Shown piece by piece: positions 593 to 41,128 of a stretch of DNA of 64,000 bases. How positions within the stretch are numbered: the stretch's first letter is position 1; every line of letters begins with the position of its first letter. The stretch is from contig JAHBUR010000007.1 of the NCBI GenBank assembly GCA_019637975.1, forward strand, positions 85,997 to 149,996, in the 5' to 3' direction. Source of the DNA: Bacteroidota bacterium (GTDB lineage: Bacteria > Bacteroidota > Ignavibacteria > UBA10030 > UBA6906). The position numbers were made by a program, and so were the translations under genes. The notes beneath the pieces are model-generated. The model had not been told where the DNA came from and made no database searches. It saw nothing but the letters and a program-made list of their open reading frames with translations.

Positions 593-606
593 AGGAGGCT
601 AACACT

Positions 607-1104: not shown

Positions 1105-1129
1105 CAACTCACCATATCTTTAAGAAGGA

Positions 1130-1900: not shown

Positions 1901-1917
1901 TACTACTCGGACAGAAA

Positions 1918-3046: not shown

Positions 3047-3047
3047 A

Positions 3048-7496: not shown

Positions 7497-7525
7497 TTGA
7501 CAATTAACTCACCTGTTCTTATAAT
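7497..7525 (+). promoter_or_regulatory. consensus sigma70-type promoter (TTGACA-N17-TATAAT) for the ECF sigma gene
   Basis: TTGACA at 7497-7502, a 17-nt spacer, TATAAT at 7520-7525. About 60 nt upstream of the RBS/ATG at 7590. Confidence 0.6.
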
Positions 7526-7589
7526 CGTACATATCGAACATAACGAGTTATACGAAAGTACAGAAGAAAGGTCTGGAGGAGTGAAAGTA

Positions 7590-13406: not shown

Positions 13407-15655
13407 AATCGAGAATCAATGACATGAATACCGGTCAACACATGGCAACTCTGACTCTGCCTGTACAGGGAATGACCTGCGCGAGTTGCGTCACGCGGGT
13501 TGAGAAAGCCCTGAAGAAAATCGATGGCGTACAGGAAGCCTCAGTGAACCTCGCAAGCGAAAAGGCCAAAGTGGAGTTCGACGCGGCGAAAGTGAACGTC
13601 GAGAAACTCCGTGCAGCTGTTGCCGATGCGGGGTATTCGCTTGTGGTATCGGAGACAGAATCAAGCCAATCCGATGGCGGCGAGACCCATCAGAGCCGGA
13701 CGATGCAGCATCTGAAAAGGGAACTTATCCTCAGCGGCTCGCTCACAGTGCCGATTATGGCGATCAGTATGGCAAGCATGTTTGAGTCATACGCAAGCTG
13801 GTCGCCACTTTCGCTTGAACAGACAAACAAGCTGTTGCTGCTTCTGACAACTCCTGTATTGTTCATCCCGGGAAGAAGATTCTTCAAGGGCTTCTGGTCG
13901 GCGCTGAAGCATTTCTCCGCCGACATGAATACACTGGTAGCCGTGGGGACGGGATCCGCGTTCGTATTCAGCACCATCGCCGTTCTGTTTCCCGAGGCTT
14001 TAGGTCATGCAGGGCATAAGGGACACGTTTACTTCGATACAACAGCGACGATCATTACGCTCATTCTTCTCGGCAAGTTGCTGGAATCGAAGGCAAAGAG
14101 CCGGGCTTCCGATGCAATCCGGAAACTCATGGGGCTTCAGCCGAAGACAGCGCGAGTGATGCGAGATGGTGTTGAACAGGACGTGTCCATCAATGATGTT
14201 ATCGCGGGTGATGCAGTAATCGTCCGGCCGGGCGAGAAGATTCCAGTTGACGGCGTTGTTCTCAGCGGCACGACAACGGTTGATGAATCGATGGTGACAG
14301 GCGAAAGCATGCCCGTCGAAAAAAACATTGGCGGCAACGTAATCGGCGGAACGATCAACAAAAACGGCAGCATTACCATGCGGGCGTCCGCGGTGGGGAA
14401 GGACACGCTGCTGGCGCATATTGCCCGACTCGTGGAAGAAGCGCAAGGCTCAAAGGCGCCGATTCAAAGTCTCGCCGACAAGATCGCATCAGTGTTTGTT
14501 CCGATCGTCATCGGCATCGCCGCCGTTACCTTTGCCGGTTGGTACTTTGCCACTGATGCCGGGTTCAATCATGCGCTCGTGCATTTCATTGCCGTCCTGA
14601 TCATCGCCTGCCCGTGTGCGCTCGGGCTTGCAACGCCGACGGCGATCATGGTGGGAACGGGACGTGGCGCAAATCTCGGCATACTCATCAAGAATGCCGG
14701 GAGTCTTGAGCGTGCCCATCGCATTCAGACCATCATTCTTGATAAAACAGGAACGATCACCGAAGGAAAACCGAAGGTCACTGATGTTGTGGCTTTCGAT
14801 GGTTTTGATGAGGTGACGATTCTGAAACATGCTGTATCTCTCGAAAGGAAATCCGGGCATCCGCTGGGGAATGCAATTGTTGAGTATGCGCAAAGGAACA
14901 CTGTTGCAGCCGTTGAAGCCGAGGCGTTCCAATCCCTTACAGGATTTGGCGTGGCCGGAGTTGTTGAAGGATTGCCGGTAGCGGTCGGAAATCTTTCCCT
15001 GCTGAAAGAGTACGCGATTCATTTGAACGGAAGAGAAGAGCGGTTGACCAGATTCGCTGCGGACGGGAAGACGCCGGTATTTGTAGCAATCGATTCCAAA
15101 CCAGCGGGCATCATCGCCATTGCCGACACGATCAAGCCGACATCGGCGGAAGCAATTCGTCGCATGAAGCAAATGGGATTGGAAGTCGTGATGATCACCG
15201 GCGACAATCAACGCACGGCGAATGCCATTGCGACGCAAGCAGGAGTTGAGAGAGTGATTGCGGAAGTTCTGCCGCAGGACAAGGCACGATCTGTTCAGGA
15301 GTTGAGAAAGGAAGGGAGGACAGTCGCAATGGTCGGCGATGGCATCAACGATGCCCCGGCACTCGCGGCAGCGGATGTCGGCATCGCCATCGGCACTGGA
15401 ACTGACATTGCAATGGAAGCAGCCGACATAACGCTGATGCGCGGCGACTTGATGAGCATCGTTCACGCGATTCGACTTTCGTCGGCAACATTGCGGACGA
15501 TCAAACAGAATTTCTTCTGGGCGTTTGTGTATAATACCGTCGGCATCCCTCTCGCGGCATTCGGACTATTGGACCCGATGATGGCCGCGGCGGCGATGGC
15601 CTTCAGTTCGGTAAGCGTGGTAAGTAATTCGCTCCGACTCAAACGCTTTCGGTGA
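13403..15655 (+). CDS. copA: copper-translocating P1B-type ATPase
   Basis: N-terminal HMA ([15 protein letters not shown]), CPC motif ([11 protein letters not shown]), [16 protein letters not shown] at 13403 overlaps the copZ stop; an alternative ATG lies at 13424. Confidence 0.9.
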
Positions 15656-15699
15656 TGTTTGCGCTTTCCGTGTTTTCTTCCTATATTTTCAACCACAAA

Positions 15700-15723
15700 C
15701 ACGTGGCTCAACAAAGCCACGTG
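15700..15723 (+). terminator. perfect 9-bp hairpin (CACGTGGCT-caacaa-AGCCACGTG) after copA
   Basis: The inverted repeat is read directly from the sequence. Only a weak U tract follows, so this may be a terminator or a processing signal. Confidence 0.4.
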
Positions 15724-15733
15724 AAGTGTTTAC

Positions 15734-15810
15734 GGCGGGATAGCTCAGCCGGTTAGAGCGTCGGAATCATAATCCGTAGGTCGGGGGTTCGAATCCCTCT
15801 CCCGCTACCC
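15734..15810 (+). tRNA. tRNA with CAU anticodon (elongator Met or lysidine-modified Ile2; not initiator-like)
   Basis: The cloverleaf folds: GGCGGGA acceptor, AGCTCAGCCGGTTAGAGC D-arm, anticodon loop ATCATAA, GGGGG-TTCGAAT-CCCTC T-arm. Positions 1/72 form a G.U pair. The anticodon stem is not the GGG/CCC type, so it is not an initiator. Confidence 0.8.
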
Positions 15811-16017
15811 TCTTCAAGTCTCCGGAGATATGTACTCCGGATCATTATCACGCAGTCTATCATTTTGTACTGACCTGCTTCAGCGAAGTTACCCATCTTC
15901 TTCACCCATGCGACGCAAAAATATGCGAGTGTCTTTGAATAGTCATTAGTGGGTGGGATGAGTGTTGAGATTGCTTACATACACTGCACACAGCGATCAC
16001 ATTCACAAACAAAGTTA

Positions 16018-16046
16018 TTGATTAGAACTTTGGGTTAGCGTATAAT
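16018..16046 (+). promoter_or_regulatory. sigma70-like promoter (TTGATT-N17-TATAAT) preceding a ~310-nt leader
   Basis: TTGATT 16018-16023, TATAAT 16041-16046. A perfect 7-bp inverted repeat TCGATGC/GCATCGA follows at 16054-16073. Confidence 0.4.
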
Positions 16047-16362
16047 GGAGGTGTCGATGCTTTCCGGCATCGAGATCCACTTTGTTCTCTTACAATCCAT
16101 TCCGACGAGTCAACGATTGTGCTCATGAAAGTTCTGACATTTCTACAGCCATGTGAGTTGTCCGTCGATGTTTCTTTCCTCTTCGCGAATCTTTTCTTCC
16201 CGTCGTTTCAGGAAAAATCCAGTTTAATCGTATCAAAAATACTCCCCTGTATTTGTTTTCCCATTCTCGCCGGTTTCTTGGCCATTCACAGGCCAGGGAT
16301 TGCTCCGGCAATAACCGCAGAATCACAACCATACTTACACAAAAACTAATGGAGATTGCCGC

Positions 16363-16869
16363 ATGACGAAGAGATGGAGAGTAAGCCCTGTGTCACTGCT
16401 ACTACTCGCAGCAGTTTTTCTTGTGGCCACAAAAGCGGAAAGTCAGACACACGGAATCAGCGCAGAAGAACTCGCTGCGCGCGCACACATCGTTGCGGTC
16501 GGCAGTGTACAGTCGATGCAGTCGGAATGGTCTTCCGATAGAACCAAAATTGTCACGAACGTGACAATCGCCGTCGACCAGTACTTGAAGGGAAGCCGGC
16601 AGGATCGGACTTTAACGATCACCGTTCCCGGCGGAGAAGTGGACGGTGTAGGAGAATTGTACAGCCATGTGGCCAGGTTCCGACAGGATGAAGAAGTAGT
16701 GGTGTTCGCCGAACGCGATGCGGGAGGAGTATTGCGTGTAGCCGGAGGTGAGCAGGGAAAACTGAGTCTGACAACCGAACGGTTTTCGGGCAAGCGTGTT
16801 GTTGGTGAAGGCGAATTACTTGAGGCATTTGCTACACGTGTCAGAGGTGCCGCTCAGAATGGTCAGTAG
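16363..16869 (+). CDS. secreted hypothetical protein
   Basis: Signal peptide MTKRWRVSPVSLLLLAAVFLVATKAESQ, GGAGA RBS, no recognisable motifs. First gene of the tRNA-adjacent island. Confidence 0.5.
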   Translation: MTKRWRVSPVSLLLLAAVFLVATKAESQTHGISAEELAARAHIVAVGSVQSMQSEWSSDRTKIVTNVTIAVDQYLKGSRQDRTLTITVPGGEVDGVGELYSHVARFRQDEEVVVFAERDAGGVLRVAGGEQGKLSLTTERFSGKRVVGEGELLEAFATRVRGAAQNGQ

Positions 16870-16933
16870 ATGATTCATCGGAGGGGAAGGGATACAGAAC
16901 CAAGAATCGATTCAGACTTAATAAAACGAGACT

Positions 16934-19900
16934 ATGATAATGAAGAAAAACAGCGGGATTTCAGTCCGGGCAATTCTGATAACGCTTGCGACAATCTTGT
17001 TCGGCAGCCAGCCAATGGCGCAGGCGCAACCGAATTCGACGGTCGTTCCCTATTTGGGGACGGGATACAAGTATATGCAAGTAAGCTGGGGCTTGCTTTC
17101 AGGATTTGAATCGCCGGGCTACGACGATAACGCGTGGGCAACGGGCGATGCCGGCTTTGGATCGATAGGAGGTTGCACGCTCAACACTACAGCGAATGTG
17201 AAGACTTCATGGTCGGTCAACACCGACATTCTTGTACGAAAGTGGTTCTCGCTGCCTGGCGGTGCACGCAACGTGATGATCCGTATTGCGATTGACAACG
17301 ATGTTCAGGTGTTCTTCAACGGGCAGGACGTTTCGGGTGGGTTGCGAACACGCGAGGGTTGTGCTGTTCGGGACAGTTATGTATTTGGCGTACCCGACGA
17401 GTTCCTTGTCACCGGAAGCAACCTTCTCGCAATTCGCGGCCGCGACCGCGGCTCGGAGTCGTATCTTGATGCTGAAGTGTTGGCGGATATTCCCGTTACT
17501 GTGATAGTCACCAATACGCTCGACAGCGGAGGCGGCTCATTGCGTGATGCTCTGGCAGTCACCAATGCGAGCAAGGCAATTGATACCATCAAGTTCAATA
17601 TCCCCGGTACGGGTGTACGGACGATAAGCCCTGCATCGCCATTACCGACGATTGATCGTCCGGTGGTGATTGATGGAACAACCCAGCCCGGATTTGCCGG
17701 TACGCCTCTAATTGCGTTGAATGGAGTAGACGCCCCTGATCATACCAACGGTTTTCATATCACAGGGGGCTCCTCCACAATCAAAGGTCTAATGATCAGC
17801 GGCTTTCACGCGCACGGAATAAAGATCTCCGTACTTTCTTACAATACAATTTTGGAAAATGCCATAACCGGGAACGGCAAAGCGGGTATTGTCGTCGTGT
17901 CCGGGCTCGGCAATCGCATTTCGCGGAACCGGATATACGAGAACGGCGAGTTGGGAATTGATTTGAGCGACAACGGAATTACGCCGAATCAGCCCCCTTC
18001 GCGCCCGCCGACACCGCGCCCCGAAACGTCATCTCTCCCGAATTTCGGGCAGAACTATCCTGTGTTGTATTACGCAGATGTCGAGTCGTCGTTTGTGCGC
18101 GGCTCTGTCAACAGTTGGCCGCACAATCTTCTGACAATTGAGGTTTTCCGGAACGATGTTATCGATCCGACGGGTTTCGGTGAGGGCAAAACCTTCATAG
18201 GAACAGCAACTTTCAGATCGGATGCAAACGGTAATGCCGTGTTTTCCATTCCCTCCCTTGTTCCGCTCTCTGCCGGTCAGTTTCTTTCGGCAACTGCAAC
18301 AGACTCCGCGGGGAATACATCGGAATTCTCCGGGAATATTATTGTCGGGGTTCGGACCAAGATTTACGGAGATCATTTTGTTGTCAATACAACATTCTCC
18401 GGCATTCCTTTGCGTTGGGCGAACGGCGAAGGCGTATATTCGTTGAGCACGGACATCCCACCCTCTTTCATACCTCCGATTGACAATGCATTTGGCACCT
18501 GGAGCGCCCTTCCACAGCTCAACTATTCAAAAGTTGGTTCTCCAAGTAACAACGTTTGGGGCGGCTTGCCCGACGGTGTGAATAATGTTGCGTGGATTAC
18601 TTCAAGTTGGATATACATTACCGGAGCCGACCCGGGCACAATTGCGGTAACACGAGTTCGCTACAACAGCGTCACCGGAGAGTTCACGGATGTGGATATT
18701 GCCTTCAACGCCGAGCATTTTCCCTTCGTGATCGTCCCTCCGAATCCTTCTCCGGCAGATACGGCGGGGAAGAAGGATGTACAGAACGTTGCGACACACG
18801 AAATCGGACACTATAGCGGATTGGGGGATATTTATGATCCCGGGTATCCGCAGTACGTTCCGTTCATGGGAGAGGGAAATGATTTTGTGACGATGTACGG
18901 CTTCATCAAGAACGGCGAAGTATCAAAGCGCGAGTTGCATCCGCCCGATACTGCCGGTATTGGCTACATCTTCCGGAGCATTCCTCAAAGTAGAGTTGAT
19001 GTGATACTCGTTTTCGACGGGGCGGGAACATTCGCCTCAACCGAGCAGGCTTTCGAGCCGGCAAAAAACAGCGCGTTGGAACTCGTTCAGAAGCTGAGAG
19101 TGGGAGATCGGATTGGCATTGTCCGTTTGCCCAATACAGTCGTTTCCGACCTCATTTCTATTCAGGACAATGCATCGCGACAGCTTGCGAGTACGAGAAT
19201 CGAAGCAATGGCCGCCGGAGGGACGAGTTTTCTGGGGCAAGGATTGCAAACAGCACAGTCTGTGTTGAATACATCTCCGTTGATGAATCAGGGAAGGGCG
19301 ATGATTCTGTTCAGTGCGGGAGATAACAACGGAACGCCCGATGCGCTCAGCGTTCTGCCATCTCTCAAAACCTCCCAAACCCGCTTGTTTACGCTCGGTT
19401 TCGCCGGAAATCCGGGCCAAGATCTGAGCAGCAGACTCGCTGACTCTACAGGCGGCTCATATCACCTTGCCTCCGATACGACACTCAGCCAAATTGTGAA
19501 CGAGATTTGGAACACGATTACCGGCACACAGTTGCTCGCCGATACGACGTTTCTTTCGAACGCGCCCGGACTCACGTGGCAAGGAGGGTTGACGTGGCAG
19601 GGTGGTTTGACATGGCAGGGGGCGGTTGATCCCGGCACGTCGCTTCTTCTTCCGGGCCTGACATGGCAGGGGAGCACGTTTCTGTTGAGTCTGTTGCCGC
19701 CCACTCCCGGCGACACAATTACACCATTCAACTACACAAACTTCCCCGGCGTGGAACACATCACCGGCCCGACGTTTGCTTTCTACCGCATCCGCAATGC
19801 GGCGCCCGGAATTTGGAGGTTGCACGTTAACGGGGCCAACACCACTCCCGAGCCACCCTCCCCCGAAGAACTCAGGCTTTCGCTTGTTGCAATAACAGAC

Positions 19901-21355
19901 GTGACCATGTCGCTGAAGTTCAACAAGCTGAACTATGCCATTGATGAAGTCGTGAGTATTGAGACCCGGCTTTCGCAAGGCGGGCAATCTCCGGGTGGCG
20001 AACATGTATTTGGCGGCGGCCCGATTACTGACGCGGAGGTTTTGGCCGATGTGATAGTGCCGGGAAGTCCCGGGTTCCAGACTGTTGCTTTAACACACAC
20101 CGGAGCGGGAATTTACGGGGGTTCATTCACCAATACGGCAGTCGGAGGGAGCTACAAATTTATAGTCCGTGCCCGCGGTCAGGTTGCCGCTGCCGATAGT
20201 TTCAAACGGCAAGTCGAGCAATCGGTATATGTTCTTGCCCCGTTTTCCACAAATGCGGTTTTGTTTGCCGGTGCCGGAATCGACCTCGGGGCGGATGTTG
20301 TTGTGAATTCGGGCGATGTCATTGTTAATAATGCCCGACCCGGAAGTCAGGTCGAGTTGTCACTCGGGGCCAAAGCAACAACTCCTGCCGGATTCAGCGT
20401 GCGTGCCAACAGAATATCGCTGAAGAGTCATGCGAAAGTATTCGGAGATGCGTACTATAATAGCCTCACAAATCAGGGAACAATCAGCGGTTCGCGGAAC
20501 ACGCCTCTGAGTCTCCCGGTTGTTCCGGCCCTTCCGCCGTTCGAAACGGCGACAGCCGGAACGCAGGACATCACGGTTGCCACCAAAAAGGCGACATCAA
20601 TTGCTCCGGGAACATACCGGGATATTGTGGTGCAACCGCAGGCAACGCTAACTTTCAATGGTGGAGGTGTCTACCAATTCAGATCGATTACAACGAAAAG
20701 CAAGTCAAGGCTGCTGTTTAACGGACAAAGCCGCGTTCGCGTCGTCAAGGACGTGAATGCCGATGCCGACACGTACATCGGGCCGGCACAAGGAAGCCCG
20801 ATTGACGCATCAGGAATTCTCTTCTTTGTCGGCGGTACGGGAACACAAGCAGTCGTACTCGGCCCGAAGGCCATCGTATTTGCCAACTTCTATGCTCCGA
20901 ACGGAAACATCACGTTCAAGGCACAGACGGAGGCTACGGGCGCCTTCCTCGCCAATACCATCAATGCCGATGCAAAAGCGATGATTACTTTGGGGAGCGC
21001 ATTCTCCGGAATCCTCAAGCCTGCCGCAGGCGGATGGACACTCGAGCCGGAGGCAATGAACGGGGAAGGAATCCCGACCACGTTTGCCTTGGAACAAAAC
21101 TACCCCAATCCTTTCAATCCTGCCACTACTATCCGGTTTGCGTTGCCAGAGCAGCGTACCGTGAGCATTGTGGTGTACGACATCCTCGGCAGAGCCGTAA
21201 GAACCCTGGTTCAAAATACGTACGACGCAGGGCGATATGATGTTGTATGGGACGGGAAGAACGACCAGGGACAGCAGGTCAGCAGCGGCGTGTTCTTCTG
21301 CCACATGAAAGCGGGAGAGTTTTTAGAACAGAAGAAGATGATGTTCTTGAAGTAA
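16934..21355 (+). CDS. 1473-aa mosaic T9SS-secreted protein: beta-sandwich, parallel beta-helix, metzincin-like HExxHxxGxxD peptidase motif, vWA-like segment, GLTWQG repeats, T9SS C-terminal domain
   Basis: Signal peptide. VIVTNTLDSGGGSLRDALAVTNAS beta-helix N-cap with NxIxxN-like rungs. HEIGHYSGLGD plus a downstream VTMYG Met-turn. DVILVFDGAGTF...GGTSFLGQGL vWA-like segment. C-terminal NYPNPFNPATTIRFALPEQRTVSIVVYDILGRAV... sorting domain. Confidence 0.8.
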   Translation: MIMKKNSGISVRAILITLATILFGSQPMAQAQPNSTVVPYLGTGYKYMQVSWGLLSGFESPGYDDNAWATGDAGFGSIGGCTLNTTANVKTSWSVNTDILVRKWFSLPGGARNVMIRIAIDNDVQVFFNGQDVSGGLRTREGCAVRDSYVFGVPDEFLVTGSNLLAIRGRDRGSESYLDAEVLADIPVTVIVTNTLDSGGGSLRDALAVTNASKAIDTIKFNIPGTGVRTISPASPLPTIDRPVVIDGTTQPGFAGTPLIALNGVDAPDHTNGFHITGGSSTIKGLMISGFHAHGIKISVLSYNTILENAITGNGKAGIVVVSGLGNRISRNRIYENGELGIDLSDNGITPNQPPSRPPTPRPETSSLPNFGQNYPVLYYADVESSFVRGSVNSWPHNLLTIEVFRNDVIDPTGFGEGKTFIGTATFRSDANGNAVFSIPSLVPLSAGQFLSATATDSAGNTSEFSGNIIVGVRTKIYGDHFVVNTTFSGIPLRWANGEGVYSLSTDIPPSFIPPIDNAFGTWSALPQLNYSKVGSPSNNVWGGLPDGVNNVAWITSSWIYITGADPGTIAVTRVRYNSVTGEFTDVDIAFNAEHFPFVIVPPNPSPADTAGKKDVQNVATHEIGHYSGLGDIYDPGYPQYVPFMGEGNDFVTMYGFIKNGEVSKRELHPPDTAGIGYIFRSIPQSRVDVILVFDGAGTFASTEQAFEPAKNSALELVQKLRVGDRIGIVRLPNTVVSDLISIQDNASRQLASTRIEAMAAGGTSFLGQGLQTAQSVLNTSPLMNQGRAMILFSAGDNNGTPDALSVLPSLKTSQTRLFTLGFAGNPGQDLSSRLADSTGGSYHLASDTTLSQIVNEIWNTITGTQLLADTTFLSNAPGLTWQGGLTWQGGLTWQGAVDPGTSLLLPGLTWQGSTFLLSLLPPTPGDTITPFNYTNFPGVEHITGPTFAFYRIRNAAPGIWRLHVNGANTTPEPPSPEELRLSLVAITDVTMSLKFNKLNYAIDEVVSIETRLSQGGQSPGGEHVFGGGPITDAEVLADVIVPGSPGFQTVALTHTGAGIYGGSFTNTAVGGSYKFIVRARGQVAAADSFKRQVEQSVYVLAPFSTNAVLFAGAGIDLGADVVVNSGDVIVNNARPGSQVELSLGAKATTPAGFSVRANRISLKSHAKVFGDAYYNSLTNQGTISGSRNTPLSLPVVPALPPFETATAGTQDITVATKKATSIAPGTYRDIVVQPQATLTFNGGGVYQFRSITTKSKSRLLFNGQSRVRVVKDVNADADTYIGPAQGSPIDASGILFFVGGTGTQAVVLGPKAIVFANFYAPNGNITFKAQTEATGAFLANTINADAKAMITLGSAFSGILKPAAGGWTLEPEAMNGEGIPTTFALEQNYPNPFNPATTIRFALPEQRTVSIVVYDILGRAVRTLVQNTYDAGRYDVVWDGKNDQGQQVSSGVFFCHMKAGEFLEQKKMMFLK
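19568..19621 (+). repeat. three tandem 18-bp repeats encoding GLTWQG (fourth copy at 19655-19672)
   Basis: ggactcacgtggcaagga / gggttgacgtggcagggt / ggtttgacatggcagggg read directly. The variation is mostly synonymous. Confidence 0.8.
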
Positions 21356-21497
21356 GGCCGGACTTGCATAATCTTCCGGTCGTCACTACCTTTACACCGG
21401 AAGCTGTTGTGATGAGGAGGTGTCATGAAGCGATTGTGACACCTCTTCTGTTTTTCAAGAAAGTAGCCCATCAGTGATTCGGAAACACAAGCACGCG

Positions 21498-24400
21498 ATG
21501 TTATTCATTACAGGTTGCAGAGTTGCGGCCCTTTTTCTTGCTGTCCTGCTCGTTTACGCGAATTCCTTTTCCCAAGCCAAACTCAGGTTCTCGCATCTGG
21601 ACGTCCGGCACGGGCTTTCCCAGAGTTCGGTGACATGCATCTTTCAGGATAGTCAAGGATTCATGTGGCTTGGAACGCAGGAAGGCCTCAACAGATTCGA
21701 CGGATACACCTTTGTCGTCTTCAAGCATAACCCGGCCGACGAAAGGAGCCTGAACGGCAACTTCATCGTTTCCATTTACGAAGATAAGGACGGTGTTCTG
21801 TGGTTTGAGACACTCACCAATGCCGAGGTTCTCAACCGGTTCGACAAACTCACAGAGACGTTTACGGAGGTACAAAAGGACAGCATTGACCTGAAGAATG
21901 CAAAATTCAGTTCAGTTTTTCCCTGGTATGAGGATCATGCAGGCGTTCGCTGGGAAAGGAAGCCCGGCGGAGGGCTGAGGAAGCTTGATACAAAAACCGG
22001 CATTCAAACGGAATACAAGAATGACCCCGCCAACCCCCGAAGTCTGAGTGACAACAGAGTATATTCCGTGTACGGAGATCGCTCGGGCACGATATGGATA
22101 GGAACCCGTGGTGCCCTCGAACGCTACGATCCGGCAACCGATTCCTTCATCCACTACAAAAAGGAAGTCGGCAATCCGAATTCGCTGAGCGACAATTGGG
22201 TGTGGCCCATTTTTGAGGATCAACTAGGCACGCTATGGGTCGGCACGGTGAACAGCGGCTTGAACAGGTTTGATCGGGAGTCGGGCGTATTCACGAGCTA
22301 CCAGCATGAGGATACCGACCCGAGAAGCTTGAGCAGCAATTGGATTTTTTCCATTTATCAGGATCGGTCGGGGCTTCTATGGGTTGGCACAAGCGGAGGC
22401 GGCGTGAACACGTTTCATCCGGGTTTGACTTCGTTCACCCATTACGCGAGAGATTCCCGGAATCCGAACAGCCTGAACGACAACCAGGTGAGAACAATCC
22501 ACGTGGATCGTTCAGGCATTGCATGGATCGGAACGCCCGGCGGCCTCAATCGTCTGGATAAAGCGAAGAAAACCTTCACCCACTATAAATCCGATCCCGC
22601 CAACCCGAAAAGTCTGGGAGATGTTCCGAATGTTATTTATGAAGATCGTTCAGGTGTGTTGTGGGTTGGAACGATGAGTAACGGCCTCGACCGGTTCGAC
22701 CGGCAGACGGGAACGTTCATACATTATCGCCGCGATCCCGCCAATCCGAAAAGCCTCAGCGATAACAGAATCTATGCATTGCTCGAAGACAGGAAGGGCA
22801 CGTTTTGGGTCGGGACAAACGGCGGCGGGTTGAATAAATTCGAAAGGGCATCCGGAACATTCAAAACGTACAACCATGATCCGAATATTCCGGCCAGTTT
22901 GAGTGCAAGAACGGTATGGGCAATTCACGAAGACCATGAGGGTGTGTTGTGGGTCGGAACAGCCGCCGGCGGCCTCAACCGGTTTGATCCTGAAACGGAA
23001 ACATTCACCGCTTTCAAGAATGACAAGTCAAATCCCTCAAGTCTGAGCGACGATGTTGTCGTTTGTATCTATGAAGATCGGCTGCATAACCTCTGGGTCG
23101 GTACTACCGGCGGGTTGAACCGGCTCGACCGCGCAACGGGGAACTTCACAATCTATCGTGAGACGGAGGGCCTGCCGAACAACAGCATCTTCGGAATTCT
23201 GGAAGACGGGAAGGGATATCTCTGGCTCAGCACCAACAAGGGATTGTCGAGATTCGATCCGGTGAATGAAACGTTCCGCAACTACGATGCGAGCGACGGC
23301 TTACAAGGGGAAGATTTCAATCAGAATGCCTATGCAAAGAACTATTCCACCGGTGAAATGTACTTCGGAGGCAACGGCGGCTTCAACGTTTTCCATCCTG
23401 ACCGCGTGCAGGACAATCCGTTCGTTCCGCCCGTCGTCTTCAGTACATTTCGCAGATACAATACGGATGACAGTGAAGGAAAGGCTATCGAAGAACGGGG
23501 CATTCCTGTAAGAGACAAGATTGAGTTAACGTACAAAGACAATATCGCAACATTCGAATTTGCCGCGCTGAGCTACTACAACGTGTTCAAGAACCGTTAC
23601 ACGTACAAGCTGGAAGGCTTCAGCGACAACTGGATTCAGCTCGGCACCGAGCACAGGGCAACGTTCACCAACCTCGATCCCGGCACTTACACTCTGCGTG
23701 TGAAAGGCTCGAACAACGACGGCGTGTGGAACGAGCAAGGCACGGCAATGATTCTCATGGTCACTCCGCCCTGGTGGAAAACAGCCTGGGCTTATGCGGG
23801 ATATGTGTTGATGTTCTTTGGAGTGCTGTATCAGCTTCGCAAGTTTGAAATCAACCGGCGGGAGCAGAAGGCACTTGTGCGGGAATCCGAACTGCGGGCG
23901 AAGGCTGCGGAAGCGGAAAAGCGGGCGCTGGAAGCCGAAAACGAACGCAAGACGAAGGAATTGGAAGAGGCGCGGCAACTTCAACTCTCCATGCTTCCTC
24001 GCGAAGTACCGAAACTCCCTCATCTGGAGATTGCCGTGTTCATGAAAACTGCGACCGAGGTAGGCGGCGACTATTACGATTTCCATCTCGCGGAAGACGG
24101 CACACTCAGCATCGCGTGCGGCGACGCAACCGGACACGGCATGCAGGCAGGAACTGTGGTTACATTGACGAAAGGACTCTTTACATCGGATGCTTCCCGG
24201 CTCGATATCAAATCATTCCTGAACCATTGCAGCAAAGCAATCAAGGATATCAAGTTGGGCCGGCTGCTGATGGCCATGACGCTCGTAAAAATCAACAATC
24301 ACAAGATTTCCTTCGCAACGGCCGGGATGCCGCCCGTTTTCATTTGCAGAAACGGCAGCGGAACGGTTGAAGAGGTATTGCTCAAAGGCATGCCGTTAGG

Positions 24401-24668
24401 TGCAATGAGAAATTTTCCCTACATTATCCACGAGGAAGAATTGCAGGCCGGCGATTCACTGCTAATGCTGACCGACGGCCTGCCCGAGCAGAAGAACGCC
24501 GCTGGAGAAATGTTCGACTATGCCCGGGTTCACGAGGTGTTGAAGGAGGCGGCAGGCGAAACACCGCAAGAGTTGATCAACCGGCTCGCATTGTCGGGCG
24601 ACGAGTGGATGAAGGGGGCTGTGCAGGAAGACGACATCACGATGATTGCCGTAAAGATGAAGGATTGA
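21498..24668 (+). CDS. hybrid sensor: periplasmic beta-propeller (two-component-regulator propeller repeats) + Y_Y_Y domain + TM + coiled coil + PP2C/SpoIIE-type Ser phosphatase
   Basis: At least 12 repeats of the D/NxxxxSLSDNxVxxIxEDxxGxLWVGT type. TM segment WWKTAWAYAGYVLMFFGVLY. Coiled coil (ELRAKAAEAEKRALEAENERKTKELEEARQ). PP2C motifs GGDYYDF and LLMLTDGLPE. The ORF-track GTG at 21474 is also possible. Confidence 0.8.
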   Translation: MLFITGCRVAALFLAVLLVYANSFSQAKLRFSHLDVRHGLSQSSVTCIFQDSQGFMWLGTQEGLNRFDGYTFVVFKHNPADERSLNGNFIVSIYEDKDGVLWFETLTNAEVLNRFDKLTETFTEVQKDSIDLKNAKFSSVFPWYEDHAGVRWERKPGGGLRKLDTKTGIQTEYKNDPANPRSLSDNRVYSVYGDRSGTIWIGTRGALERYDPATDSFIHYKKEVGNPNSLSDNWVWPIFEDQLGTLWVGTVNSGLNRFDRESGVFTSYQHEDTDPRSLSSNWIFSIYQDRSGLLWVGTSGGGVNTFHPGLTSFTHYARDSRNPNSLNDNQVRTIHVDRSGIAWIGTPGGLNRLDKAKKTFTHYKSDPANPKSLGDVPNVIYEDRSGVLWVGTMSNGLDRFDRQTGTFIHYRRDPANPKSLSDNRIYALLEDRKGTFWVGTNGGGLNKFERASGTFKTYNHDPNIPASLSARTVWAIHEDHEGVLWVGTAAGGLNRFDPETETFTAFKNDKSNPSSLSDDVVVCIYEDRLHNLWVGTTGGLNRLDRATGNFTIYRETEGLPNNSIFGILEDGKGYLWLSTNKGLSRFDPVNETFRNYDASDGLQGEDFNQNAYAKNYSTGEMYFGGNGGFNVFHPDRVQDNPFVPPVVFSTFRRYNTDDSEGKAIEERGIPVRDKIELTYKDNIATFEFAALSYYNVFKNRYTYKLEGFSDNWIQLGTEHRATFTNLDPGTYTLRVKGSNNDGVWNEQGTAMILMVTPPWWKTAWAYAGYVLMFFGVLYQLRKFEINRREQKALVRESELRAKAAEAEKRALEAENERKTKELEEARQLQLSMLPREVPKLPHLEIAVFMKTATEVGGDYYDFHLAEDGTLSIACGDATGHGMQAGTVVTLTKGLFTSDASRLDIKSFLNHCSKAIKDIKLGRLLMAMTLVKINNHKISFATAGMPPVFICRNGSGTVEEVLLKGMPLGAMRNFPYIIHEEELQAGDSLLMLTDGLPEQKNAAGEMFDYARVHEVLKEAAGETPQELINRLALSGDEWMKGAVQEDDITMIAVKMKD

Positions 24669-24673
24669 CCCCC

Positions 24674-25090
24674 ATGCATGATACCGTAGCTTTGAAAATC
24701 GAACTTCCTAAGATTCCCGATATCGAGTTGGTTGCGATTGAAGGGCTGGAACGTCTCGGCCGCCATCTCGGAATCACCGACGAGAAAGTTGGGGAAGCCC
24801 GCGTACTCGTTACAGAAGCGATCATCAATGCGCTGGAACATGCAGGCGAAGAGAACCCGGTTGTCCAGGTCGAATTCACGATGTCCAAACAAGAGTTGAC
24901 GATTTTTGTCAGGGATTACGGGAAGGGATTCCAGCCTTCGGCAATTCAATCGCCGGACATCGGGAAGAAATTCGGCTCGAAAGACAAGCGCGGGTGGGGA
25001 TTGCATCTGATGAAATCAATGTCGGATGATTTCCGCATCGAGTCGAAAGAAACAGGAACAAAGATTACGCTCATCAAGAAACTGACGTAG
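24674..25090 (+). CDS. RsbW/SpoIIAB-like anti-sigma factor Ser kinase (GHKL ATPase)
   Basis: N-box EAIINALEHAG, G1 DYGKGF, G2 GWGLHLMKSM. The ATG sits 6 nt after the sensor-phosphatase stop. Confidence 0.75.
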   Translation: MHDTVALKIELPKIPDIELVAIEGLERLGRHLGITDEKVGEARVLVTEAIINALEHAGEENPVVQVEFTMSKQELTIFVRDYGKGFQPSAIQSPDIGKKFGSKDKRGWGLHLMKSMSDDFRIESKETGTKITLIKKLT

Positions 25091-25098: not shown

Positions 25099-25449
25099 AT
25101 GGAACAAGAGTTTACACTGACATCAGAAGTGCAGGACGGGTGTCTGGTGATTGCAACATCGGGATATGTCAACAACAAAGGCGGCGAAGCGATTGCGCAG
25201 GAGTTCAGCAAGCATTTTGACGCCGGCATCAAGCGCGTGATCATCAACCTGGCGCAATCAAAAGTTGTCAACTCCATCGGCATGTCTTTTCTGATCGAGA
25301 TCATCGAACGGCTGGAAGAAACAGGCGGCAAGCTCGTGTTCACCAACTTGGATCCCGGTGTCGAGAAGATGCTTTCTATTATGGGATTGTTCAACTTTGC
25401 AGGGAAAGAAAAGACCGTGCAGGATGCCCTCAAGTCATTCTCAATATAG
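25099..25449 (+). CDS. STAS-domain anti-sigma-factor antagonist (RsbV/SpoIIAA-like)
   Basis: 116 aa. VVNSIGMSFLIEII matches the phospho-acceptor region, with NSIG in place of the usual DSSG. Confidence 0.75.
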   Translation: MEQEFTLTSEVQDGCLVIATSGYVNNKGGEAIAQEFSKHFDAGIKRVIINLAQSKVVNSIGMSFLIEIIERLEETGGKLVFTNLDPGVEKMLSIMGLFNFAGKEKTVQDALKSFSI

Positions 25450-25466: not shown

Positions 25467-27065
25467 GTGGCATCTCAGCATCTCGTTGACCGGCTTTCTG
25501 TTCAAATTGATTCATTGCAGGATGGATTTGAAGCCCTCACTCGTGCTACGAACCTGAAAGAACTGTCCCGACAGTTCTTCCATCTTCTTCGCGGAAATTT
25601 CGTCACGTCGGAAATCTCCATTTATCGAAAACAGAAATCCGCCGACTTATGGGAATTTCTGTACGGCAAAGGGCACGAAAGCTCCGAATATCTCGGCGAA
25701 GCGTCAACGACGTTTGCGTTGAAGGGATTCGGCGGAAAAGATCCGAAACTGACTGCCGTTCAGCCGCTGGTGGATAAATCATCGGCGGGCGTTGTACTGG
25801 GACGCAAGCTCGACGGCAGCACGTATTCATCCCTCGACAAAATCTCACTTCAGATTTTTCTCCAACTCTTCGCAAATGCGTATCAGGCACACCTTCAGCA
25901 ACGCAAAGAGAAGGAACTCATCTTTTCTCTCAATCACCGTCTGCTGCAACTGAACAGCCTCATCGATACCGGTATCGAATTGACGAGGCCGAGAAAGGGA
26001 GTCTCGCCCCCTGTTCTTGCTCTTGAGCGGGCCGCGGTTCTGACCAACGCATCGTGGGGTACATACAAGAAAACCGTTCAGGGGCAGTCAATGGAAGAAC
26101 TGGTTTTCCCGGCCGGGACGAAGCCGCATCGTATCAAGGACAAGCGCCATCGCATTCATGCGGGATTCAAGTTTCGTGATGCAACATACGCGTTCAATCT
26201 GTACGAAAAGGAAAGCCGGGCAGGCACAATCCCGTTTGACGAAACCGACACGATGCTTCTTGCTGCTGTGTGCCGTCAGGTTCATGCAGTGATTGAAAAC
26301 CAGTTTCTGCATAATGAAGAGTTGGAGAAGCAAAAAATCGAGCAGGATATTGCTGTTGCCGCGGCAATACAAAAGCGGATAATACCGGAAAGACTTCCCG
26401 CAATCCCGGGCTACGATCTGTTCGGTATCAATATTCCGACCAAGGCGGTCGGGGGGGATTATTACGATTGTATTCCTTTAGCGAACGGAACGTATGCGTT
26501 CATCATGGCGGATGTCGCGGGGAAGGGCGTTCCTGCCGCGTTGCTGGTCAGCAGTTTTCATGCTTATCTGACGGCGTATCTTGAGGTGGAATTTTCCTTG
26601 CTGACGCTGGCGCAGAAACTCAACAGCGCAATGTACCGTTCGTCTACTCCCGAACGGTATATTACCGGTATCGTCGGTGTTCTCAATCCGTCGACGGGAG
26701 AGTTGGAGACGATCAACGCCGGGCACAATCCGATGTACGTTCACCGGAACAACAGTACGGTGGAGGAATATGCGAATGGCGGCATAGCATTCGGCATGCT
26801 CGACATCGACTTTCCGTATCAGAGTGATCGGATCATCATCCAACCGGGAGAACGCGTGTTGCTGTACACGGACGGCGTTCCCGAGGCGATGAACAGCGAC
26901 GAAAAGCTCTACGACACGAATGATTCGTTCAAGAAATTCATGATCAACAACCGGCCGGAAGGCGCGGAGCATTTCATACATTCGCTCATGAGCGATGTTT
27001 CCTCCTTCACAGGGTCGGCTCCGCAAAGCGACGACATTACTGCCCTGTATCTTCTTCGACGTTAA
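25467..27065 (+). CDS. PP2C/SpoIIE-type Ser phosphatase (RsbU-like) with N-terminal sensory region
   Basis: AVGGDYYDCIPLANGTYAFIMADVAGKGVPAAL and LLYTDGVPEAMN PP2C motifs. GTG start. Confidence 0.75.
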   Translation: MASQHLVDRLSVQIDSLQDGFEALTRATNLKELSRQFFHLLRGNFVTSEISIYRKQKSADLWEFLYGKGHESSEYLGEASTTFALKGFGGKDPKLTAVQPLVDKSSAGVVLGRKLDGSTYSSLDKISLQIFLQLFANAYQAHLQQRKEKELIFSLNHRLLQLNSLIDTGIELTRPRKGVSPPVLALERAAVLTNASWGTYKKTVQGQSMEELVFPAGTKPHRIKDKRHRIHAGFKFRDATYAFNLYEKESRAGTIPFDETDTMLLAAVCRQVHAVIENQFLHNEELEKQKIEQDIAVAAAIQKRIIPERLPAIPGYDLFGINIPTKAVGGDYYDCIPLANGTYAFIMADVAGKGVPAALLVSSFHAYLTAYLEVEFSLLTLAQKLNSAMYRSSTPERYITGIVGVLNPSTGELETINAGHNPMYVHRNNSTVEEYANGGIAFGMLDIDFPYQSDRIIIQPGERVLLYTDGVPEAMNSDEKLYDTNDSFKKFMINNRPEGAEHFIHSLMSDVSSFTGSAPQSDDITALYLLRR

Positions 27066-32483: not shown

Positions 32484-33905
32484 TTGAATGAACTTGTAGA
32501 AATATTCCCTACTGAACGGCAGAAGCTCTACGAGAGGTTTGCAGACAAGCTTCAGACGGCGTCTCATCTCAATCGCCAACTTGTGAGCTTTCAGGCGAAC
32601 AAAGAGGAACCGATTTATCGCTGGTTCAAATACAAGGAGGGGTTTTCTTCAGGGCTCGTTAAGTATTTCCTGAACAAGTATTCAGATAAACCGGGGAGAC
32701 TTCTTGATCCTTTCGCCGGAGTAGGAACAACCTTATTCGCTGGCCAGTCACTTGGTTGGGATTCTTATGGCATTGAAGTTCTACCCGTTGGCGTTTTTGT
32801 TATGCAGACAAGGGAGGCCTTGCCCAAGATTAATCCACTTAATTTAAGCGAGAGCATCCAGACCTTTTGGTCAGAATTCGACAGAATTGAGAATTCCAAG
32901 ACCCTTTTCAATCACATATCAATCACAAGAGATGCCTTCCCAGATGACACTGAAGTTGCCCTAAATCGATTCCTTACATACTGCGAAAGTTTGCATAACA
33001 AGGACATCAAAACACTCTTGAGGTTTGCCGCATTCTCTCTTCTTGAAGAAATCAGCTACACGAGAAAAGACGGGCAATACCTCAGATGGGACTACCGTTC
33101 CAAGAGGGACTTGGCAGGTAAACCTTTCAATAAAGGCAGAATCCTCACTTTCGAGCAGGCATTAAGATTAAAACTCTCTCACATTGTGGCCGACCTTGGC
33201 CCTCAGAATGACTCACTCTTTGACACTCCAAGTGACAACGGGCACGATAAGCGGCCCATCAATATCATAGAGGGGTCATGTCTAGCGAAACTGCCAACTC
33301 TAGATAATGACTCCTTCGATTTCATTGTAACATCGCCGCCATACTGCAATCGCTATGATTACACAAGAACTTACGCGCTCGAACTAGTCTTTCTCGGATG
33401 CGATTCTGACAAGGTACGCAACCTGCGCCAAGAACTTTTGTCATGCACCGTCGAAAACAAAGAGAAACTAGAACAACTGAGACAACTCTACACTTCTTTC
33501 GGCAAAAGTGAGTCCTTTGATTCGGTGCTTCGTGTATACGATTCTTCACTTGCAATGACTGAAGTGAACGCCATCCTAGCCGAACTCAATAAATTGGAGA
33601 AACTCAACAACAACAATATTCCGAGAATGGTGCGCAACTACTTTCTCGAGATGTGTTTTGTAGTCTCCGAAATGGCCAGAGTTACCAAGAGTGGCGGGTA
33701 TTGCGTTATGGTAAACGACAATGTTCGCTATGGTGGTGAAGAGATTCCTGTCGACCTTATTCTCTCCGAGTTTGCTGAGGGATTTGGCTTCATCGTTCGG
33801 AATATTTTTGTCCTGCCCAGAGGCAAGGGAAACAGCAGCCAACAGATGGGAAACTATGGTCGAACGGAAATTCGAAAGTGCGTGTATCTATGGCAAAAAC
33901 GATGA
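32484..33905 (+). CDS. N6-adenine/N4-cytosine DNA methyltransferase (motif I DPFAGVGTT, motif IV SPPY; alpha-like order)
   Basis: LLDPFAGVGTTLFAG and FIVTSPPYCNRYDY. TTG start (no in-frame ATG). Markedly lower GC than the flanks. Confidence 0.8.
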   Translation: MNELVEIFPTERQKLYERFADKLQTASHLNRQLVSFQANKEEPIYRWFKYKEGFSSGLVKYFLNKYSDKPGRLLDPFAGVGTTLFAGQSLGWDSYGIEVLPVGVFVMQTREALPKINPLNLSESIQTFWSEFDRIENSKTLFNHISITRDAFPDDTEVALNRFLTYCESLHNKDIKTLLRFAAFSLLEEISYTRKDGQYLRWDYRSKRDLAGKPFNKGRILTFEQALRLKLSHIVADLGPQNDSLFDTPSDNGHDKRPINIIEGSCLAKLPTLDNDSFDFIVTSPPYCNRYDYTRTYALELVFLGCDSDKVRNLRQELLSCTVENKEKLEQLRQLYTSFGKSESFDSVLRVYDSSLAMTEVNAILAELNKLEKLNNNNIPRMVRNYFLEMCFVVSEMARVTKSGGYCVMVNDNVRYGGEEIPVDLILSEFAEGFGFIVRNIFVLPRGKGNSSQQMGNYGRTEIRKCVYLWQKR

Positions 33906-34858
33906 GACGTCAAAGTCCAATCACATCAGCGGAAGACCTGGTTACTCCGCGTGAGAAAACAAGGGCTGGTTTTATATCGCTTGCCCTGGAGAAAAACTAC
34001 TTAGCTGTCCCTTACATCGAAGAAGCAAAGGCATTGAAATCGCTTGCAGCCAGGGTTTCACACCCCACAGACCTACTGCAAGTCAAAGACCTGAGAGTTG
34101 GTTTGCTCACCGCTTCGGGCCTTTCCGACAAATCCTTGAACTATTTGACTGAAACAGATAAGACGCTCGCTATAAAGGAAATGATAGAGAAGTTTCTTGA
34201 ACCAGCGGGGGGGGACTTCATCGATGAACTCGTTTATCGCTATCTGCTGACGAAGGGGGATGCGTTAGGCGGGAAAGCAAGAAATCTCGCTGGAGTCTTG
34301 GGCGAGAGAAAGTTCTTGCGCACATTGTTGTCGGTTTTCAATCTATCGGGCATCAGCTACCAATGGAAAGATGACGAAACTAATACATGGCATGCACGAT
34401 TGAAAGATGACACAGATATCGAAAAGCGAACCAAAGGCTTGTACTGGGCAAACAATGGGCGCAACCGGCTTCTGATGATGAACATCAGAGTGCCAGTTGT
34501 GGAAAAGAACGTCGACCTGTCAATCTTGGACGGTACAGTCCTTGACTTGCGCAAGGGCAGTCAATCCATTTTACACAAGACCGACGCATATGTAGCCCTT
34601 GGAGAACTAAAAGGCGGCATTGATCCCGCTGGCGCAGACGAACACTGGAAGACCGCCAATTCTGCCTTGGAGCGAATCAGAATTAGTTTCAGCAAGAGGA
34701 AGGAGAAGCCACGGACATTTTTTGTCGGTGCGGCAATCGAGAACAGTATGGCTTCTGAAATCTTCAAGCAAATACAAAGTGGAGCTCTCGACAATGCTGC
34801 AAACCTTACAAATGATAACCAGTTGGCATCTATCTGCGAGTGGATTGTGAATTTGTAG
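33902..34858 (+). CDS. putative cognate restriction endonuclease (hypothetical protein)
   Basis: Its ATG overlaps the MTase stop (ATGA). It is co-directional and low-GC like the MTase. A possible D...ExK catalytic motif lies in TDAYVALGELKGG. No family match is recognisable by eye. Confidence 0.45.
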   Translation: MRRQSPITSAEDLVTPREKTRAGFISLALEKNYLAVPYIEEAKALKSLAARVSHPTDLLQVKDLRVGLLTASGLSDKSLNYLTETDKTLAIKEMIEKFLEPAGGDFIDELVYRYLLTKGDALGGKARNLAGVLGERKFLRTLLSVFNLSGISYQWKDDETNTWHARLKDDTDIEKRTKGLYWANNGRNRLLMMNIRVPVVEKNVDLSILDGTVLDLRKGSQSILHKTDAYVALGELKGGIDPAGADEHWKTANSALERIRISFSKRKEKPRTFFVGAAIENSMASEIFKQIQSGALDNAANLTNDNQLASICEWIVNL

Positions 34859-35884: not shown

Positions 35885-36325
35885 ATGAAGGCCGCTACTC
35901 TGACACACAAAGACACGTTGCTTCTTCAGAACGCCCGTTTCTACGAGGCATTCGAAAGCGCCGACCTTTCTGCATTGGATGATGTGTGGAGTCATGCCGG
36001 AAGCGTGAAGTGCATCCATCCCGGCTGGCATCTGCTCGAAGGCTGGCCTGCAATCAGGGAAAGCTGGGAGAGGATTTTCCGGGCGAACGCCAATATGAAA
36101 ATTTCTCTTCGCAATATTTCGGCGGAGATACGGGGAACATTAGGCATCGTGACGTTGATTGAAGAAATCTCCTACACAACTCCGAACTCAATCCGCACAG
36201 GTTCGATCATGGCGACAAACATCTTCGAACGGGTTGATGACGGTTGGAAGATGATTCACCATCACGGCTCTCCAATGATGGTAGCCGAGGAAGAGGGAAG
36301 TGACAACAACTTCCGGTACAACTGA
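35885..36325 (+). CDS. NTF2-like/SnoaL-like (DUF4440-type) protein
   Basis: LLLQNARFYEAFESADLSALDDVWSHAGSVKCIHPGW is a ketosteroid-isomerase-like pattern. Directly upstream of hpnCDE. Confidence 0.6.
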   Translation: MKAATLTHKDTLLLQNARFYEAFESADLSALDDVWSHAGSVKCIHPGWHLLEGWPAIRESWERIFRANANMKISLRNISAEIRGTLGIVTLIEEISYTTPNSIRTGSIMATNIFERVDDGWKMIHHHGSPMMVAEEEGSDNNFRYN

Positions 36326-36329
36326 TCTG

Positions 36330-37199: not shown

Positions 37200-37201
37200 G
37201 T

Positions 37202-41072: not shown

Positions 41073-41128
41073 TGTTGCCCGGTATCTCACCTCTGTTGCC
41101 GGGTCTTGTTACGTAATCTCTCACCCTC

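Follow-up and report, generated by a model that had tools for sequence, protein, structure and literature searches.

How species-specific signals are relayed to the PPM phosphatases that trigger partner switching is still unsettled. To our knowledge, the PPM inputs characterized so far are either a partner protein or modules of the PAS, GAF, receiver, or HAMP type. In the RsbU/RsbP-RsbV-RsbW system of Bacillus subtilis, two PPM phosphatases with different inputs converge on one STAS protein, which is phosphorylated by RsbW. In the SiaABCD system of Pseudomonas aeruginosa, the membrane-anchored sensor phosphatase SiaA dephosphorylates a partner-switch protein with a non-sigma output, and SiaABC is said to be a partner switch that controls secretion or biofilm without a dedicated sigma factor. 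In Chlamydia trachomatis, the PPM phosphatase RsbU spans the membrane and has a sensor domain that binds ligand in the periplasm. As one study describes it (PMC11619594, citing Soules et al. 2020), this domain is small and a proposed binder of tricarboxylic acid cycle intermediates, the phosphatase feeds a module of an RsbW-like kinase and STAS antagonists (RsbW and RsbV1/V2), and the proposed target is sigma-66. Here we describe a predicted sensor phosphatase encoded at 21498-24668 (+) of a 64,000-nucleotide stretch of an Ignavibacteria genome (contig JAHBUR010000007.1, positions 85,997 to 149,996), which we refer to as the window. We call the product of this open reading frame (ORF) sensor-PPM. 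The original prediction for this DNA held that the ORF joins the periplasmic sensor of a hybrid two-component system (HTCS) to a PP2C phosphatase in place of a histidine kinase and couples a probably carbohydrate signal to a downstream partner switch.

The closest characterized functional analogues of sensor-PPM are the transmembrane sensor phosphatases Chlamydia RsbU and Pseudomonas SiaA. Like Chlamydia RsbU as described, sensor-PPM would feed an RsbW-like kinase and a STAS protein, but its sensor is a double propeller with a Y_Y_Y domain, about 730 aa in all. SiaA has a similar PPM domain (sensor-PPM matches 6K4E) but a different sensor module, and the sensor-PPM gene block has no diguanylate cyclase. 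The arrangement in the window mirrors that of Bacillus RsbU and RsbP, with one input extracytoplasmic and the other cytoplasmic. Unlike the Bacillus phosphatases, sensor-PPM would be a transmembrane receptor and not an enzyme activated by a partner protein, and the operon lacks the sigB-type sigma gene found in Bacillus.

The sensor half resembles the HTCS proteins of Bacteroides (BT4663 [PDB 4A2L/4A2M], BT3049, and BT4673), with which it shares Reg_prop propellers, a Y_Y_Y domain, a PPWW motif, and a transmembrane helix. A scissor-like movement has been reported for BT4663 (PMC8534201), and transmembrane signaling through a dimer is probably common to both. HTCS proteins continue into HisKA, HATPase, receiver, and AraC helix-turn-helix (HTH) domains, whereas sensor-PPM has none of the four and carries a PPM Ser/Thr phosphatase instead. 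Lacking kinase, receiver, and HTH domains, sensor-PPM falls outside the HTCS definition. Also unlike HTCS genes, its gene does not lie beside a polysaccharide utilization locus (PUL), and the bacteria that carry it are Ignavibacteria, Calditrichales, and Bacteroidota that have not been cultured, as opposed to gut Bacteroides.

The sensor-PPM ORF starts at 21474 (GTG) or 21498 (ATG), runs without interruption to 24668, and encodes 1056 aa counted from the ATG. Searching it with Pfam, we found Reg_prop (E = 1.3e-61, 11 stretches passing), Y_Y_Y at aa 693 to 748 (E = 1.7e-16), and SpoIIE (PF07228) at aa 867 to 1054 (E = 5.2e-33; 115 bits against a gathering threshold of 25). Pfam gave no match to HisKA, HATPase_c, or Response_reg, even at E ≤ 1, and no AraC HTH. 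The ORF is therefore free of a kinase, as had been proposed. We also examined an AlphaFold2 model, a monomer built on 58 sequences, with a mean pLDDT (predicted local distance difference test) of 85.4 and values above 90 across most of the periplasmic part.

The protein begins with a hydrophobic signal peptide or signal-anchor helix (aa 1 to 26; 21498-21575, +), which is the only region with Kyte-Doolittle windows above 1.5. It is modeled as a helix at aa 2 to 20 and is poorly conserved (18% mean identity). Next comes a periplasmic tandem beta-propeller (aa 27 to 640; 21576-23417, +) with a mean identity of 56 to 60%. At least 12 Reg_prop-type repeats had been claimed for it. A motif scan found 12 regular W-x-G-T blade cores spaced 43 to 50 aa apart plus one degenerate blade, and secondary structure in the model gave a count of about 13 four-stranded units at aa 44 to 632, so the claim stands. 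The membrane-proximal segment (aa 641 to 757; 23418-23768, +) is the Ig-like Y_Y_Y domain that had been expected there, modeled as a beta-sandwich at aa 646 to 755, with a mean identity of 71%. It leads into the PPWW motif and transmembrane helix 2 (aa 758 to 782; 23769-23843, +), with the sequence PPWWKTAWAYAGYVLMFFGVLYQL. P757, P758, W759, and W760 are invariant in the 58-member alignment. The helix itself, the single one predicted after Y_Y_Y, is aromatic rich and spans about aa 762 to 781, starting at aa 763 in the model.

We found that the cytoplasmic helical linker that follows (aa 783 to 836; 23844-24005, +) is the most conserved segment of sensor-PPM, with a mean identity of 84% and numerous invariant residues between E796 and P834. 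Conservation of this kind would be expected of a signaling helix, and we regard the linker as a putative coiled-coil helix of that type. The model places helices at aa 763 to 794 and 805 to 831. With a long helix reaching to about aa 831, the coiled coil of the original prediction is plausible.

The chain ends in a SpoIIE/PPM (PP2C) Ser/Thr phosphatase domain (aa 837 to 1056 and the stop codon; 24006-24668, +), with a mean identity of 64%. The two motifs quoted for it earlier, GGDYYDF and MLTDGLPE, are present and lie at metal-binding Asp positions. In alignments to Rv1364c, RssB, SpoIIE, and SiaA, the motifs GGDYYDF, GDATGHG, LTDGL, and EDDIT fall on the metal-binding positions. D858, D861, D876, D993, D1045, and D1046 are invariant in the 58 family members. 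We take D858, D876, D993, and D1045/D1046 to be the equivalents of SpoIIE D610, D628, D746, and D795. By its motifs, then, the output of sensor-PPM is predicted to be a PPM phosphatase whose catalytic site is intact, in place of a histidine kinase. Neither finding that could have undone the proposed architecture was made: the N-terminal repeats are Reg_prop and Y_Y_Y, and no metal-binding Asp residue of PP2C is missing. Sensor-PPM scored far below the NCBIfam cutoffs for SpoIIE (TIGR02865; 49 bits, cutoff 491), SiaA (NF038263; 34 bits, cutoff 700), RssB (NF045505; 36 bits, cutoff 700), and RktP (TIGR04400; 27 bits, cutoff 200), and we rejected orthology to any of the four.

The periplasmic module is homologous to the Bacteroides HTCS sensors in both sequence and fold. 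In sequence searches, the 736 periplasmic residues matched BT4663 (4A2L) with E = 1.8e-112, 3V9F with E = 1.5e-93, and 3OTT/3VA6 with E = 7.5e-49. When we compared the model with the PDB by Foldseek, the BT4663 periplasmic domain ranked at the top (E from 6e-59 to 2e-56), with 29 to 30% identity over about 745 residues and a target-normalized TM-score of up to 0.82. PorZ and eukaryotic propellers ranked far below it. The HTCS-type architecture that had been read into this part of the protein is thus borne out. We rejected identity with PorZ, a type IX secretion system (T9SS) component: the NF052228 score was 115 bits against a cutoff of 260, and the target-normalized TM-score to 5M11 was only 0.34. 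The resemblance to PorZ is generic for Reg_prop propellers.

The fusion of propellers to a PPM domain is no oddity of one genome but a large and diverse family. Among the top 120 clusters at 90% identity (57 to 92% identical to sensor-PPM), all 120 had Reg_prop, Y_Y_Y, and SpoIIE. We also searched aa 690 to 1056, which contain the junction, against 1.84 billion representatives clustered at 50% identity and obtained 1634 matches at E ≤ 1e-30. The whole junction (Y_Y_Y, transmembrane helix, linker, and PPM) was aligned in about 127 of the best 150 of these representatives, and about 106 of the 127 were at least 1000 aa long. At JGI, members of the family bear the name [quoted passage not shown]; at NCBI, they are listed as [quoted passage not shown] The rarity that the original prediction implied is therefore wrong. 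That the fusion is an artifact of assembly or gene calling, or a decaying HTCS remnant, has next to no chance of being right and was rejected, given an intact ORF, the same Pfam set in all 120 best matches, a junction conserved in 127 of 150 representatives, and a model with a pLDDT of 85.

Scanning one genome for each GTDB species, we obtained 323 relatives, whose loci we label L001 and so on. Full-length relatives, with both sensor and PPM (49 to 93% identity), came from Ignavibacteria, including Ignavibacterium album metagenome-assembled genomes (MAGs), from Calditrichales, and from unclassified Bacteroidota/"Chlorobi" MAGs. The nearest, from "uncultured Chlorobi bacterium CHB1" (CAADGV01), is 93% identical and fully syntenic, so that the window probably derives from this lineage. 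Matches from Cyanobacteria, Chloroflexota, Thiotrichales, Acidobacteriota, and other groups cover residues 1 to about 810 only. We scanned 34 of these sensor-only relatives and found HATPase_c in 33, HisKA in 23, HisKA_3 in 5, and HisKA_2 in 3. A receiver was present in 18, a nucleotide cyclase in 3, an AraC HTH, as in a canonical HTCS, in 2, and SpoIIE in 1. The same sensor thus occurs with an exchanged output, as had been suggested: 33 of the 34 are histidine kinases.

Consistent with an input into PPM phosphatases, the same sensor family reaches PPM outputs by two other routes. In three Chloroflexota loci (L060:58-5338, L067:7539-13132, and L069:7824-13122), a propeller-histidine kinase gene is followed directly by a gene for a receiver-SpoIIE response regulator. 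In the cyanobacterium Laspinema (L051:7959-12560), one chain of 1534 aa contains the propeller, Y_Y_Y, HisKA, HATPase, receiver, and SpoIIE. Their sensors belong to the same family (38 to 43% identity), and their output is likewise a PPM, but a His-Asp relay stands between sensor and SpoIIE, whereas the sensor-PPM family fuses the two directly. We therefore regard the sensor-PPM family as a short-circuited version of a recurring coupling of this sensor to PPM phosphatases. In the literature searched, we found no description of the His-Asp-relay wiring from propeller to PPM.

Immediately downstream of sensor-PPM are three genes that would make up a partner switch. The first (24674-25090, +), whose ATG lies 5 nt past the sensor-PPM stop codon, encodes an RsbW/SpoIIAB-like serine kinase or anti-sigma-type switch protein of 138 aa (Pfam HATPase_c_2, E = 2.3e-22). 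In an alignment to RsbW 6M36, its N-box and G-boxes are recognizable, and both are conserved across 27 sequences. It scored 53 to 55 bits with the SpoIIAB/RsbW NCBIfam equivalogs, whose cutoffs are 135 to 145. Judged by these scores, it is a relative, not an orthologue, of RsbW and SpoIIAB. The second gene (25099-25449, +), 8 nt beyond the kinase gene, encodes a STAS anti-sigma-antagonist-like protein of 116 aa, the putative substrate. The original prediction had placed a STAS gene at exactly these coordinates, and Pfam agreed (STAS, E = 3e-14). Its Ser59 aligns with SpoIIAA Ser58 (1TH8/1AUZ), with NSIG opposite DSSG, and is invariant in 26 of 26 sequences.

The third gene (25467-27065, +), 17 nt beyond the STAS gene, encodes a second, cytoplasmic PPM phosphatase of 532 aa, PPM2, with intact PPM motifs (Pfam SpoIIE, E = 5e-41). 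Its orthologues make up a family of proteins about 530 aa long. In its model (pLDDT 84), two tandem alpha/beta sensor-like modules and long connecting helices precede the PPM domain. By Foldseek, this domain matches SiaA-PP2C with a target-normalized TM-score of 0.83. A GAF/PAS-like label for the two modules was not confirmed, as the PPM domain swamped the fold search, which gave only a weak match to a phytochrome-type PAS-GAF-PHY structure (5LLW). PPM2 probably provides the switch with a second input.

With gaps of 5, 8, and 17 nt, the four genes form a tight operon. We also counted the kinase, STAS, and PPM2 genes within 8 kb of the sensor orthologue in the 27 full-length loci with enough flank. 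We found the kinase gene in 23, the STAS gene in 22, and the PPM2 gene in 21. Of the 4 loci without the kinase gene, a contig end or paralogues that fill the flank account for 3, and the fourth, cyanobacterial L051, encodes a different, larger protein. The trio was inverted yet adjacent in L011, L019, L021, L022, and L026. Both the operon and the conserved linkage support the predicted coupling of the sensor to the STAS/RsbW module. A role for sensor-PPM as an input into a partner switch is well supported as a prediction, because the trio adjoins the sensor gene in most orthologous loci.

In L006, L009, L010, L012, L013, L017, L027, L048, and L052, one or two sensor-PPM paralogues of about 1250 aa directly follow PPM2, at around locus positions 13700 to 17900. 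Their presence in many Ignavibacteria suggests that several receptors feed one switch. The window has tilS after PPM2 and no extra paralogue there.

Taking these data together, we think it likely that sensor-PPM is an inner-membrane, single-chain sensor phosphatase that feeds the neighboring RsbW/STAS partner switch, with PPM2 as a second input. According to this model, the HTCS-type periplasmic module of Reg_prop propellers and Y_Y_Y would bind an extracytoplasmic ligand, and binding would alter the geometry of a sensor dimer, by analogy with BT4663. The change would pass through transmembrane helix 2 and the conserved helical linker of about 55 residues. In RsbU, crossing helical linkers control dimerization of the PPM domain and its switch helices (PMC12143880). 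The linker of sensor-PPM would likewise set the dimer and switch-helix state of its PPM domain, and thereby whether the phosphatase is on or off, along the lines proposed for RsbU, RsbP, and SpoIIE. The active phosphatase would remove from Ser59 of the cotranscribed STAS protein the phosphate put on by the cotranscribed RsbW-like kinase. Unphosphorylated STAS would then sequester the kinase, freeing the kinase's partner, or would act on a target itself. PPM2 would act on that STAS protein as an independent, cytoplasmic input, in the manner of the paired inputs RsbU and RsbP in Bacillus. We infer the dimeric linker mechanism, the identity of STAS as the substrate, and the direction of regulation; what points to dephosphorylation of STAS by sensor-PPM is the operon structure and the conserved linkage.

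The conserved block of genes also extends upstream of sensor-PPM. Its first gene (16363-16869, +) encodes UP2, a small secreted protein of 168 aa with an N-terminal signal peptide, for which we found no family in Pfam or NCBIfam. A tRNA gene (15734-15807) and a noncoding leader of about 550 nt precede UP2. The leader contains a sigma-70-like promoter match (10/12) at 16018-16046, and a search of the whole window, leader included, with Rfam returned tRNAs only. The gene after UP2 (16934-21355, +) encodes a giant secreted protein of 1473 aa with a beta-helix (NosD/Beta_helix), VWA, and a FlgD_ig/Por_Secre_tail T9SS C-terminal sorting domain. It also carries a HEIGHYSGLGD metzincin-type metalloprotease motif and four GLTWQG repeats. 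A second protein with a T9SS tail, with a weak S1/P1-nuclease match, is encoded at 8902-10047 (+).

In 24 loci, 3 kb or more of upstream flank was available, and in 23 of these an orthologue of the giant gene directly preceded the sensor orthologue. A UP2 orthologue preceded the giant gene in 22 of the 23 loci with at least 6.5 kb. The sole exception to both counts was cyanobacterial L051. The linkage was seen in Ignavibacteria, Calditrichales, and unclassified Bacteroidota MAGs (L001 to L029, L047, L048, L052, and L081). In L081, UP2 is present as well and the giant gene is split in two. This context suggests a functional tie of the sensor to a secreted or surface protein.

Between the giant and sensor genes lies a terminator-like hairpin (21414-21448, +) with a 15-bp stem followed by the T-run TGTTTTTC. 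It ranked first among sites of its kind, which taken together showed no enrichment over shuffles. The hairpin may be a partial terminator or attenuator that separates two expression units. About 40 nt remain between it and the sensor-PPM ATG. There we found no convincing sigma-70 promoter in a scan that was not enriched over shuffles and whose model does not cover Bacteroidota-type promoters.

Several results weigh against the reading of sensor-PPM as a sensor phosphatase for the neighboring switch. The relative at L081 (57% identical) lacks the RsbW/STAS/PPM2 trio within 10 kb downstream. Linkage to the giant gene is tighter than linkage to the trio, which may not be the only partner. We found no SigB/SigF-type sigma factor in the 64-kb window, using phmmer with probe sequences and Pfam on most large ORFs. 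In the monomer model, pLDDT is low in the middle of the linker (aa 790 to 808). Finally, a heptad scan of the linker was ambiguous and gave no single coiled-coil register. As for sigma factors in general, none was seen as a target in the conserved block of related loci, and an ECF (extracytoplasmic function) sigma gene at 7497-8189 (+), 13 kb upstream of the sensor, was the only one among the scanned ORFs of the window.

Sensor-PPM could be a glycan sensor that binds an oligosaccharide and differs from the Bacteroides HTCSs only in its output, a suggestion that we regard as tentative and, on balance, doubtful. The closest solved homologue, BT4663, at the identity and target-normalized TM-score given above, is a sensor of heparin/heparan sulfate. 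Moreover, the parallel beta-helix of the giant protein is of a type common in polysaccharide-active enzymes, and an alpha-amylase-family gene lies 18 kb away at 42366-44183. However, no PUL genes (SusC/SusD) and no glycoside hydrolase gene adjoin sensor-PPM in the window or are conserved in related loci, and Reg_prop propellers occur also in contexts other than glycan sensing and in PorZ. With no PUL-type genes adjoining, the context gives no specific support for a carbohydrate ligand, and the "probably carbohydrate" signal of the original prediction finds no backing there: the conserved neighbors are UP2 and the T9SS giant.

Those neighbors may themselves be what the sensor serves. If so, sensor-PPM would work mainly with the upstream genes, rather than as a generic sensor of nutrients or stress: it would monitor the product of the giant, fragments of its substrate, or its transit through the periplasm, along with UP2, and expression or secretion of the giant and UP2 would be adjusted through a sigma-independent partner switch. 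We consider this rather unlikely. It has a parallel in HTCS genes that lie beside the PUL whose products generate the HTCS ligand. The linkage to UP2 and the giant is kept even where the trio is inverted, moved, or absent, and the gene block contains no sigma factor. Known Gram-negative partner switches that have non-sigma outputs, BtrUVW and SypA/SypE, control secretion or biofilm (PMC8256260). However, the case is one of synteny throughout, and a strong terminator-like hairpin separates the giant and sensor genes. The linkage could also reflect shared ancestry of the gene block in related lineages, with no bearing on function.

An extended form of this idea joins the upstream and downstream genes. 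The six-gene block (UP2, giant, sensor-PPM, RsbW-like kinase, STAS, and PPM2) might be a self-contained circuit for control of a surface protein in the FCB (Fibrobacteres-Chlorobi-Bacteroidetes) group, in which the sensor detects the reaction product or the periplasmic load of the giant and regulates the giant through the sigma-independent switch. We offer this as speculation and think it unlikely. If true, this would be the first description of a partner switch from Bacteroidota, Ignavibacteria, or Calditrichota, and also the first such switch linked to cargo of the T9SS.

The adjacency of the kinase and STAS genes might also be incidental, with the PPM domain acting on other Ser/Thr phosphoproteins or serving as a noncatalytic adaptor like RssB of Escherichia coli. 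PPM2 alone could serve the switch, the L081 relative has no trio nearby, and the PPM domain has a weak NCBIfam resemblance to RssB. However, the catalytic Asp residues are invariant in the 58 homologues, counter to a pseudophosphatase, and the sensor and kinase genes are only 5 nt apart. In addition, the trio is linked in most loci and in more than one FCB-group lineage (Ignavibacteria and Calditrichales), and the sensor-PPM paralogues directly after PPM2 in Ignavibacteria fit several input phosphatases that share one switch. We consider an incidental adjacency improbable and retain the RsbW/STAS switch as the likely target of sensor-PPM.

The sensor-PPM family indicates that a large HTCS propeller/Y_Y_Y receptor, of a kind that has been studied structurally for transmembrane signaling, can drive a PPM domain directly. 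The authors of the RsbU work proposed that sensor modules are exchangeable among PPM, histidine kinase, and GGDEF outputs through the linker (PMC12143880). Propeller sensors with histidine kinase, histidine kinase-receiver-PPM, cyclase, and PPM outputs are a natural illustration of that proposal, and they provide a natural series in which exchange through a common helical linker can be tested. A further pointer from the locus is to partner switching in the FCB group, possibly connected with a giant protein that the T9SS secretes. In the open-access literature, to which our search was limited, we found no paper on Reg_prop/Y_Y_Y fused to SpoIIE, PP2C, or RsbU and no publication on partner switching in the FCB group or in connection with T9SS, Bacteroidota, or Ignavibacteria. 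A classification of bacterial PP2C phosphatases does not mention propeller or Y_Y_Y partners (PMC12088040). The design has already been catalogued by pipelines, and we found no experimental study of it in the literature searched. Given how common the fusion is, and that annotation pipelines have a name for it, its value lies in offering a tractable system and not in surprise.

Elsewhere in the window, a cluster of two ExbD genes and a TonB-C gene opens the sequence (17-4865, +) and is followed by genes for a PBP-like protein and a tetratricopeptide repeat protein of 605 aa. Genes for a DNA methylase and for a restriction endonuclease of the BsoBI type (PF09194, E = 5.8e-136) occupy 32484-34858 (+), within the lowest-GC stretch of the window (0.466). 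This is probably a horizontally acquired restriction-modification island. Two tandem squalene/phytoene-synthase-family genes and a flavin amine-oxidase-family gene follow at 36300-39431 (+), and we take them to resemble the HpnC/HpnD/HpnE three-step squalene route. At 39930-42331 (+), where the AT skew is strongly negative (-0.244), two membrane acyltransferase genes of the HGSNAT_cat/Acyl_transf_3 type stand in tandem. An HGSNAT_cat gene also lies 1.4 kb downstream of the sensor gene in L081 (L081:14580-15845). Finally, five tRNA genes are clustered at 45447-46120 (+), upstream of ORFs of rpoB/rpoC size (49662-57785; matched by size only) and also upstream of the genes for elongation factor G and ribosomal proteins L3 and L4.

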